Assembly: GCA_029856435.1 (NCBI GenBank)
Contig: JAHQXB010000114.1
Coordinates: 1-49,933 of the forward strand
Direction of reading: 5' to 3'
Source of the DNA: Candidatus Jordarchaeia archaeon
Lineage (GTDB): Archaea; Asgardarchaeota; Jordiarchaeia; Jordiarchaeales; Jordiarchaeaceae
Length of the DNA stretch: 49,933 nucleotides
The translations under genes were made by a program, and so were the position numbers. Shown in pieces: positions 20,706 through 32,057 of the stretch. Below the pieces are notes generated by a model. That model made no database searches, had not been told where the DNA came from, and worked only from the letters and a program-made list of their open reading frames with translations. Position 1 is the stretch's first letter, and each line of letters begins with the position of its first letter.

Positions 20706-21059
20706 TTAAGCTTTTAGTAACTGAATCTCGATGGTGGAAACATTGCGCTTATCATCGCCAGTACCTATGATCTCGGTGCCTGTAGTAATCTTACCCAATT
20801 TTACACCCTCGGGTAAGAAGCGCTGACGAACAATCTCTGCAACATCCACCGCCTTAGAAATAGCTCTGCCACGAGCAACGATGATAACCTCTTTAGCGCC
20901 TTGATTGAACTGGATAACACAAGCTAAGACATAACTCAATCGACGTAGAACACAAAAGTGAATCTACATTGTCGGTTTCCTTCCTATAAAGACCATATTC
21001 TCTTCTGATCTTTCTTCTTCGGGTTCTGCCTCGTTCTTTTTTGCTGGTTTTTTGGACAT
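20706..21059 (-). CDS. albA: DNA/RNA-binding protein Alba, split gene: exon 1 21059-20969, exon 2 20938-20706, 107 aa after splicing
   Basis: GGAGG then ATG at 21059. Exon 1 ends [10 protein letters not shown]; exon 2 reads [37 protein letters not shown]...NVSTIEIQL. Joined KPTMSYVLA matches the Alba pattern KPVMNYVLA. Confidence 0.92.
20939..20968 (-). other. 30-nt bulge-helix-bulge intron in the alba mRNA
   Basis: Minus strand: CGAC-AA^U-GUAGA-UU-CAC-UUUU-GUG-U-UCUAC-GUCG-AU^U-G. The 4-bp central helix CGAC/GUCG has two 3-nt bulges. Cutting after the 2nd nt of each bulge removes the in-frame UAG and regenerates AUG. Confidence 0.88.
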
Positions 21060-21332
21060 TTTAATTGCCTCCCTTGTATGCCCCTTTATTATTAGATTAT
21101 TGTTTTATTTACCATTTAAATTTTTCTTTTTTAAATTACTTTTTAATCCTTTAACCTACACTCAGCACAATCTTAATTTTTATTTTTTCGGCGCAATTCG
21201 TAACTCTCTAGAAGAGAGTGGGGTGGTCTCTTCGCCTTTTCAGTAACCGAATTATTTAAATGAGGTTTGAACAATGAAACTTAGTGTATAAAAATTGCCG
21301 ATAATAAGAAGGCTGACCCGAGAGGATTTCAT

Positions 21333-31961: not shown

Positions 31962-32057
31962 TGGTAGCAAGGAGCGGATTCGAACCGCTGTCCAGGACTA
32001 TCTCCTACTCATCAGAGCTCCAGAGGCCCCGATGCTTGACCACTACACCACCTTGCT
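31962..32057 (-). tRNA. tRNA-Gln(CUG) with a 20-nt intron at 37/38 (32000-32019) and encoded CCA
   Basis: Acceptor AGCAAGG/CCUUGCU (A1-U72, typical of archaeal tRNA-Gln), T arm AGCGG-UUCGAAU-CCGCU, anticodon stem GGGGC/GUCCU, anticodon at 32023-32021. Confidence 0.96.

Follow-up and report, generated by a model that had tools for sequence, protein, structure and literature searches.

Evidence for a relaxed HBh' intron of the BHB class in the pre-mRNA of one alba paralog of Jordarchaeia

How can a complete Alba protein be encoded by a gene whose uninterrupted reading ends at a UAG after 31 codons? The question is raised by one of four alba genes in a Jordarchaeia/Freyarchaeia (Asgard) genome of 3.54 Mb (181 contigs, 42% G+C). 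This gene lies in the window, i.e., the whole 49,933-nt stretch of DNA that was analyzed (contig C43), and is the one of the four that is interrupted, by a 30-nt insert. An initial annotation of the window proposed that the insert is a tRNA-type BHB intron that is removed from the alba mRNA by tRNA-splicing enzymes. The evidence set out below indicates that it is very probably a genuine relaxed HBh' BHB intron in the pre-mRNA of this alba paralog, and that the mRNA almost certainly has to be spliced by the tRNA-splicing enzymes. Among the points that weigh against this reading is that the other three alba paralogs (contigs C76, C66, and C109/C154) are all uninterrupted, so that loss of the window copy might be tolerated. 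The C109/C154 paralog is split over two contig ends, the start of C109 overlapping the start of C154.

On the minus strand, the interrupted region reads ...AAAC-CGAC-AAU-GUAGA-UU-CAC-UUUU-GUG-U-UCUAC-GUCG-AUU-GAGUUAUG... and its features are collected in Table 1. The sequence matches the initial annotation to the base, both in the exact length of the interruption with its in-frame UAG and in every detail of the described fold: the CGAC/GUCG helix, the bulges AAU and AUU, and the GUAGA/UCUAC stem with its CAC-UUUU-GUG cap. Upstream of the insert, an ATG-initiated ORF (21059-20964) encodes 31 aa and ends ...FIGRKPTM directly before the UAG; this is the short peptide that had been predicted from unspliced mRNA. 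Downstream, the exon 2 frame (from 20939) encodes 77 aa and matches the Pfam Alba profile with E = 3e-21. The match covers profile positions 12-65, and because it begins only at position 12, exon 2 by itself lacks the fold's first strand. Removal of positions 20968-20939, which corresponds to cutting after the second nucleotide of each bulge, produces CCG ACA AUG AGU (P-T-M-S), with the Met codon made across the junction. The predicted spliced product is the 107-aa Alba that had been proposed.

Table 1. Features of the interrupted alba gene (window coordinates)
Feature	Position	Strand	Remarks
alba exon 1	20969..21059	-	Start codon, K/E-rich tail, strand beta1, and first base of the Met codon
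Predicted 30-nt BHB (HBh'-type) intron	20939..20968	-	Exactly this unit is missing from intron-less orthologs and contig L169
alba exon 2	20706..20938	-	Last two bases of the Met codon, then SYVLACV… to the TAA stop
Central helix, 5' strand CGAC (exonic)	20971..20974	-	Pairs with 20941-20944; invariant in 10/10 variants
Central helix, 3' strand GUCG (intronic)	20941..20944	-	All four pairs standard in 10/10 variants, never varying
Bulge 1, AAU	20968..20970	-	Predicted 5' splice site between 20969 and 20968
Bulge 2, AUU	20938..20940	-	Predicted 3' splice site between 20939 and 20938
Intron hairpin h' (GUAGA/UCUAC, internal loop, CAC-UUUU-GUG)	20945..20967	-	Folds at -6.6 kcal/mol
In-frame UAG	20964..20966	-	Second codon past the predicted 5' splice site; UAG or UGA there in all 10 variants
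Shine-Dalgarno-like GGGAGG	21068..21073	-	8 nt before the exon 1 ATG
Putative TATA-like box TTTAAAT	21114..21120	-	About 55-61 nt upstream of the ATG; assigned tentatively

The structure contains the defining elements of a BHB motif: two 3-nt bulges on opposite strands, with a 4-bp helix between them. The hairpin h' is present in all variants recovered from relatives, and the exon-side helix that a strict hBHBh' motif would have is reduced to a single invariant C-G pair (20975/20937). Since only this one pair closes the exon side, the motif belongs to the relaxed HBh' form, in agreement with the weak exon-exon helix noted in the initial annotation. Among relatives, the bulges vary in part. The third nucleotide of bulge 1 is U or A and its two exonic A's are fixed; the second nucleotide of bulge 2 is U, A, or G and the third, which is the exonic U of the AUG, is fixed.

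To calibrate the cut rule, we used an authentic tRNA intron that lies elsewhere in the window. The gene for tRNA-Gln(CUG), at 31962-32057 on the minus strand, carries a 20-nt canonical 37/38 BHB intron, with a CUCU/GGAG helix followed by a 3-nt bulge on each strand (GGA and AUA). Formation of the mature tRNA with its 37/38 junction needs cuts after the second nucleotide of both bulges, and the geometry of the alba insert is identical to that of this intron. In the variants with bulges AAA/AAU, shifting both cuts one base later would give Lys in the product, and unequal shifts would break the frame. tRNA-Gln is the only tRNA found in the window.

We also considered folding energy. The energy of the 71-nt alba region is unexceptional compared to shuffled sequences (z = -0.9), and the minimum-energy structure of the window copy is a competing fold that is 1.5 kcal/mol better than the BHB structure. 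For six of the 10 variants known from this site, the unconstrained minimum-energy fold is exactly the helix, 3-nt bulge, and hairpin. Folding energy alone is uninformative, and the case therefore rests on comparison with relatives.

Relatives were gathered from genome and metagenome collections and from contigs that encode close relatives of the Alba protein. Alignment of their alba loci, which the initial annotation had named as a way to check the motif, revealed 20 independently assembled contigs in which an insert occupies exactly this position. These represent 10 variants with lengths of 27, 28, 29, 30, 31, and 40 nt, and canonical cutting restores …G[RK]KPTMSYVLACV… in every one of them. 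All 10 share the CGAC/GUCG helix, one C-G pair outside it, bulges of the form AA[U/A] and A[U/A/G]U, and an inner helix that begins with the same two pairs. The remainder of the inner hairpin differs between families: it is GUAGA…UCUAC in the genus of the window, and in the other family either GUG-A-GGCGG-loop-CCGCC-CAC or a hairpin of 13 bp. An assembly artefact is ruled out by the occurrence of the insert in 20 independent contigs from NCBI, JGI, ENA, and Logan.

The pairing itself is maintained across this divergence. Standard base pairs occupy 98% of cells in the 10-variant alignment; in registers shifted by 1-3 columns, the figure is 11-48%. Two inner-helix pairs change from A-U to G-C on both sides, compensatory changes that stem from a small number of events in evolution. 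Within the genus, variation is seen at 0 of 24 paired intron positions, compared to six of nine unpaired positions (Fisher p = 8e-5), although synonymous sites of the flanking exons are near saturation (dS at least 1). The locus is also syntenic, with alba followed by a small ORF and then a CxxCxxCC-domain gene (20571-19634 in the window).

Orthologs that lack the insert provide a further view of the junction. Among species representatives of the class, nine of 11 carry the insert and the other two have an uninterrupted junction, the two states being mutually exclusive. Both intron-less species belong to one genus of the second family and read AA[A/G]-CC[A/G]-ACA-AUG-AGU-UAU. In all intron-less orthologs (L171-176, L180-182, L202, and L203), exon 1 is contiguous with exon 2, and the junction predicted by the canonical cuts, CCGACAAUGAGUUAUG, is read exactly. 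Agreement with these orthologs and with the tRNA-Gln calibration supports the cut positions given in the initial annotation. For the complete Freyarchaeia genome CP147778.1 (about 1,125,563-1,125,608; L013/L196), the corresponding predicted spliced junction is CCGACAAUGAGUUACG. The simplest history would place the intron in the class ancestor, followed by precise loss in part of one genus.

A further sequence lacks the intron within an otherwise near-identical context. Contig L169, a 1,057-nt Logan assembly from run SRR28530378, encodes a 108-aa protein (P0001) and is 99.6% identical to the intron-bearing genome of isolate SQRJ_82 (L011), with four mismatches and exactly 30 nt missing. L169 derives from a spliced transcript or else reflects precise loss of the intron in the very recent past. 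DNA is the somewhat likelier source, since the 365 nt that precede the start codon are part of the contig; its ORF content in this upstream region is uninformative on whether RNA or DNA was sequenced. The literature searched made no mention of SRR28530378, and the source paper of SQRJ mentions no metatranscriptome. A search for a spliced eL42, another interrupted gene of this genome (see below), found no near-identical spliced form. Whichever its source, the unit missing from L169 is the unit predicted by the BHB structure.

The core of exon 1, ENMVF[IV]G[RK]KPT, is conserved in all orthologs (dN/dS about 0-0.15 at dS of 0.4-1.2), and within-genus comparisons over this core and exon 2 yield dN/dS of 0.01-0.05. 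By these measures, both exons are under strong purifying selection. The start codon of exon 1 and the GGGAGG preceding it are kept in every relative, and nothing similar to this motif precedes exon 2.

These observations bear on two alternatives in which the gene would never be spliced. In the first, exon 2 alone would be translated from a UUG, AUG, or GUG, and exon 1 would be a separate small ORF or leader. The codon over bulge 2 is indeed UUG, AUG, or GUG among the variants, each a usable start, and gene callers annotate a 77-78-aa 'DNA-binding protein Alba' in relatives. Such a protein would nevertheless lack strand beta1 (Pfam positions 1-11), which is precisely what the core of exon 1 supplies under purifying selection and what intron-less orthologs carry fused in frame. 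The only Shine-Dalgarno-like motif stands before exon 1, and the conserved BHB geometry with its compensatory changes would be left unexplained. We consider translation of exon 2 alone to be very unlikely. In the second alternative, the insertion would have inactivated the window copy, with its function covered by the three intact paralogs; the in-frame stop and the presence of those paralogs are compatible with a pseudogene. The insert has been kept at one site over the whole class, however, without further lesions in the 20 contigs, and it evolves like a structured RNA. Together with the low dN/dS at dS of at least 1 and the conserved start codon and ribosome-binding site, this makes a pseudogene a hardly tenable explanation.

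Translational recoding is a third alternative, whether by reading through the stop (e.g., with pyrrolysine at UAG) or by bypassing the insert as in T4 gene 60. The stop lies directly after the last codon of exon 1 and is followed by a hairpin, a superficial likeness to a bypass site, and one public gene call (P0002) reads the UAG as Gln. Inserts of 28, 29, 31, and 40 nt would nonetheless break the frame on read-through, and in two variants the UAG is replaced by UGA. Matching take-off and landing codons are absent from nine of the 10 variants: AAG precedes the stop, and neither AAG nor ACA occurs at the 3' end. Pyrrolysine machinery among Asgard archaea is reported only for Sifarchaeia (PMC9723677), and this report together with the insert lengths excludes pyrrolysine read-through. 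We regard recoding in general as having a negligible chance of being correct.

One lineage, represented by contigs L090 and L190, contains a doubled intron. Here, a second BHB intron of 31 nt lies 8 nt upstream of the first (helix CAGG/CCUG, bulges AAG and AAA), so that the inserts are split by a micro-exon of 8 nt (ACCGACAA). Together the inserts amount to 62 nt, which makes the gene unreadable through them and again conflicts with recoding. The central helix of the second motif lies inside the micro-exon, which suggests that the two introns would be spliced in order. L090 (about 960-1000) and L190 are Guaymas-type metagenome contigs, and both of their alba introns are 31 nt long.

With these alternatives weighed, splicing by the tRNA enzymes remains the preferred reading, and it sets demands on the enzymes of the host. 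The alba motif needs a broad-specificity EndA because it lacks an exon-side helix; the HBh' relaxed motif is accepted by (alpha-beta)2 and epsilon2 enzymes, and Asgard EndA is reported to be an (alpha-beta)2 enzyme with an L1 loop that confers broad specificity (PMC5829648). The genome contains two EndA homologs, on contigs C104 and C64. The first, a 192-aa ORF, keeps the Tyr/His/Lys catalytic residues and has its best solved match in 3P1Z_B, the catalytic subunit of the Aeropyrum pernix heterotetramer (E = 3e-45); the region of the Crenarchaea-specific loop aligns as GQPLGIRKPKSPQF versus GQPLDVEKPRGADF. The second, a 197-aa beta-like ORF, is without the His and also matches beta-subunit models. 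RtcB is likewise present (579 bits). Judged by sequence, the host thus appears equipped with an alpha/beta EndA carrying the broad-specificity L1/CSL loop and with RtcB; the initial annotation had called for a heteromeric EndA and RtcB. With almost no exon-side helix present, cleavage at the 3' splice site hangs on an enzyme property assigned by homology, and we infer the cleavage and ligation of the alba RNA themselves.

Previous work indicates that this lineage of Asgard archaea is extremely rich in non-canonical tRNA introns (PMC5829648; PMC11291895), with introns in 92-95% of tRNA genes in Freyarchaeia and Atabeyarchaeia (PMC11291895). ARAGORN recognised only six tRNA genes in the 3.5-Mb genome, a number that is of no use as an intron census; presumably, most tRNA genes are too heavily interrupted to be recognised.

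Three further protein-coding genes of this genome contain BHB inserts whose canonical removal restores conserved motifs. In rtcB, a 30-nt hBHBh' insert with an in-frame UGA (contig C93:1547-1576, minus strand) has a CCCG/CGGG helix, bulges ACA and AAG, and an exon helix CCUUG/CAAGG, and its removal restores LPDAHQGYGFPIGG. Of the six genomes of the genus, five show an in-frame stop in rtcB; genomes of the other family show none. Maturation of the rtcB mRNA would thus depend on the very ligase that it encodes. In eL42, a 33-nt in-frame insert with two stops (contig C42:8859-8891, plus strand) has a GCCU/GGGC helix and two AAA bulges, and removal gives …GSQPKPIQKRFAKTTKK…. In cbf5, a 31-nt BHB insert (contig C73:22783-22813, minus strand) lies between GHAGTL and DPKVTG (GTL|DP), and the region folds as a complete textbook hBHBh' structure. 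On contig C5, around minus-strand index 40119, another gene carries a 31-nt insert with the same CGAC/GUCG helix as alba, bulges AUU and AAU, and a strong 7-bp exon helix AUCCCGU/ACGGGAU.

The genome was also scanned, in six versions and with shifted-cut controls, for BHB motifs that would leave two coding frames joined after canonical removal. The loose versions gave no excess over the controls because junctions of adjacent genes and chance open frames dominate them. The strict versions gave a small excess (33 and 30 motifs, compared to about 20 in the respective controls). The scans recovered alba, rtcB, gatE, an EndoQ-like gene, pcm, and a handful more; they are of low power and missed eL42 and cbf5, both of which were confirmed by other means. 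A genome scan for other ORFs split by BHB motifs had been suggested in the initial annotation; such inserts are confirmed for rtcB, eL42, and cbf5, and the scan's own excess is small (about 30 versus 20). Only about ten or more further candidate mRNA introns can be claimed for this genome; in all, the alba intron is taken to belong to a set of at least a dozen.

Taken together, these results are consistent with the following sequence of events. The alba transcript would fold such that the exonic CGAC pairs with the intronic GUCG, which would place the 5' splice site in the 3-nt bulge between the central helix and the intron hairpin, and the 3' splice site in the 3 nt after the helix, where one C-G pair would close the exon side. 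An (alpha-beta)2 EndA with the L1/CSL loop on its alpha subunit would cut after the second nucleotide of each bulge. RtcB would join the exons, forming the conserved AUG Met codon over the junction, and would probably circularise the excised 30-mer. The complete 107-aa Alba would be encoded by the spliced mRNA only; translation of unspliced mRNA would stop at the UAG.

Why such an intron has been retained is a separate matter. One possibility, extending a proposal of the initial annotation, is that it serves as a regulated gate that couples Alba synthesis to tRNA-splicing capacity or to binding of Alba to its own pre-mRNA, the stop codon acting as a safeguard. Retention over the class and helix sequences conserved beyond the needs of pairing agree with this, as does the UAG or UGA that all 10 variants have as their second read-through codon, even where the helix has been replaced. 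The need for rtcB itself to be spliced in this genus would moreover create a loop. On the other hand, the two class species and contig L169 that lack the intron argue against an essential role, and the conserved stop counts as only two or three independent cases. Introns of the same kind in eL42, cbf5, rtcB, gatE, and other genes unrelated to alba fit spread and entrapment better than gene-specific regulation. We therefore think a regulatory gate improbable. Most likely, the intron persists since the gene would be inactivated by any mutation that spoiled the motif; an element that is unable to decay without killing its host gene is expected to show invariant helices and, on rare occasions, replacement of a whole helix, as is seen here. 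The constant stop at the second codon, representing two to three independent events, could reflect selection against translating unspliced RNA.

One of the nearest precedents is the intron of cbf5. The cbf5 pre-mRNA intron of Crenarchaeota was reportedly described by Watanabe in 2002 and Yoshinari in 2006. Like the alba intron, it is a BHB-type intron within a coding region that has been gained and lost among related lineages, and it is removed by a hetero-oligomeric tRNA splicing endonuclease of the type predicted for alba (PMC2738675). The alba intron differs in its gene, in its phylum (Asgard, Jordarchaeia), and in its relaxed motif without an exon-exon helix, and it is one of many apparent mRNA introns in its genome, including one in that genome's own cbf5. 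Splicing of crenarchaeal cbf5 has been shown experimentally, whereas that of alba is predicted from sequence. Another mRNA BHB intron that is a substrate of EndA, and whose removal appears to favour expression, occurs in HVO_1309 of Haloferax volcanii (PMC7714728). In contrast to alba, that intron lies in a 5' UTR, has a canonical motif, is cut by a homodimeric EndA, and is the single case in its genome.

Two other systems share features with the predicted alba splicing. The HAC1 and XBP1 mRNAs, to which the initial annotation likened alba, are spliced by Ire1 together with a ligase, RtcB or Trl1, with RtcB being the ligase in metazoa. As proposed for alba, these mRNAs are processed by an endonuclease and a ligase independently of the spliceosome, which alters the encoded protein; unlike alba, where the motif is of the BHB class, they depend on the Ire1 nuclease and two 7-nt loops and are regulated by stress. 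Non-canonical (HBh'/BHL) tRNA introns are said to have been described by Marck and Grosjean in 2003. Those of Thermoproteota and Asgard archaea (PMC5829648; PMC11291895) share with the alba intron their motif class, cut positions, size range (tens of nt), and predicted enzymes. The host RNA of the alba intron is instead a messenger. Codons (ACA-A / UG), not tRNA structure, constrain the exonic portions of its motif.

According to a 2020 paper, whose own example lies in a 5' UTR, cbf5 was otherwise the sole case reported, and the sole one in a coding region (PMC7714728). The authors of the initial annotation had known of no described alba intron; our full-text literature search likewise found no description of an alba intron, nor of BHB introns in Asgard protein-coding genes. 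The alba intron would be a second, well-supported case in an archaeal coding region; its host belongs to the group of archaea nearest to eukaryotes, and its gene encodes a highly conserved nucleic-acid-binding protein of chromatin and RNA. At this one site, an evolutionary series can be followed from ancestral presence through helix replacement and a doubled intron with an 8-nt micro-exon to precise loss.

There are also practical consequences. Public calls of this alba gene contain one of three errors: restriction to exon 2 (77-78 aa), a start placed within the intron (84-85 aa), or a UAG translated as Gln (118 aa). Miscalled records of this sort lie behind P0002, P0003-P0007, and P0086-P0090, with P0002 being the 118-aa product of the unspliced gene with TAG taken as Gln. 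In this lineage, introns of this type will lower estimates of completeness and distort catalogues of proteins.

More broadly, the tRNA-splicing enzymes may constitute a general mRNA-splicing system in Jordarchaeia, acting on alba, cbf5, eL42, rtcB, and at least ten other genes. Output of Alba and of the ligase would then be coupled to splicing capacity as a checkpoint, and alleles such as that of L169 would be captured spliced transcripts or cases of ongoing precise loss, perhaps via cDNA. We put this wider model forward tentatively and think it rather doubtful as a whole. If confirmed by RNA data, a large number of mRNA introns that includes one in the ligase gene would be the wider novelty. 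Such a set of introns would make Jordarchaeia a natural system in which to follow how introns spread and persist in protein-coding genes without a spliceosome.
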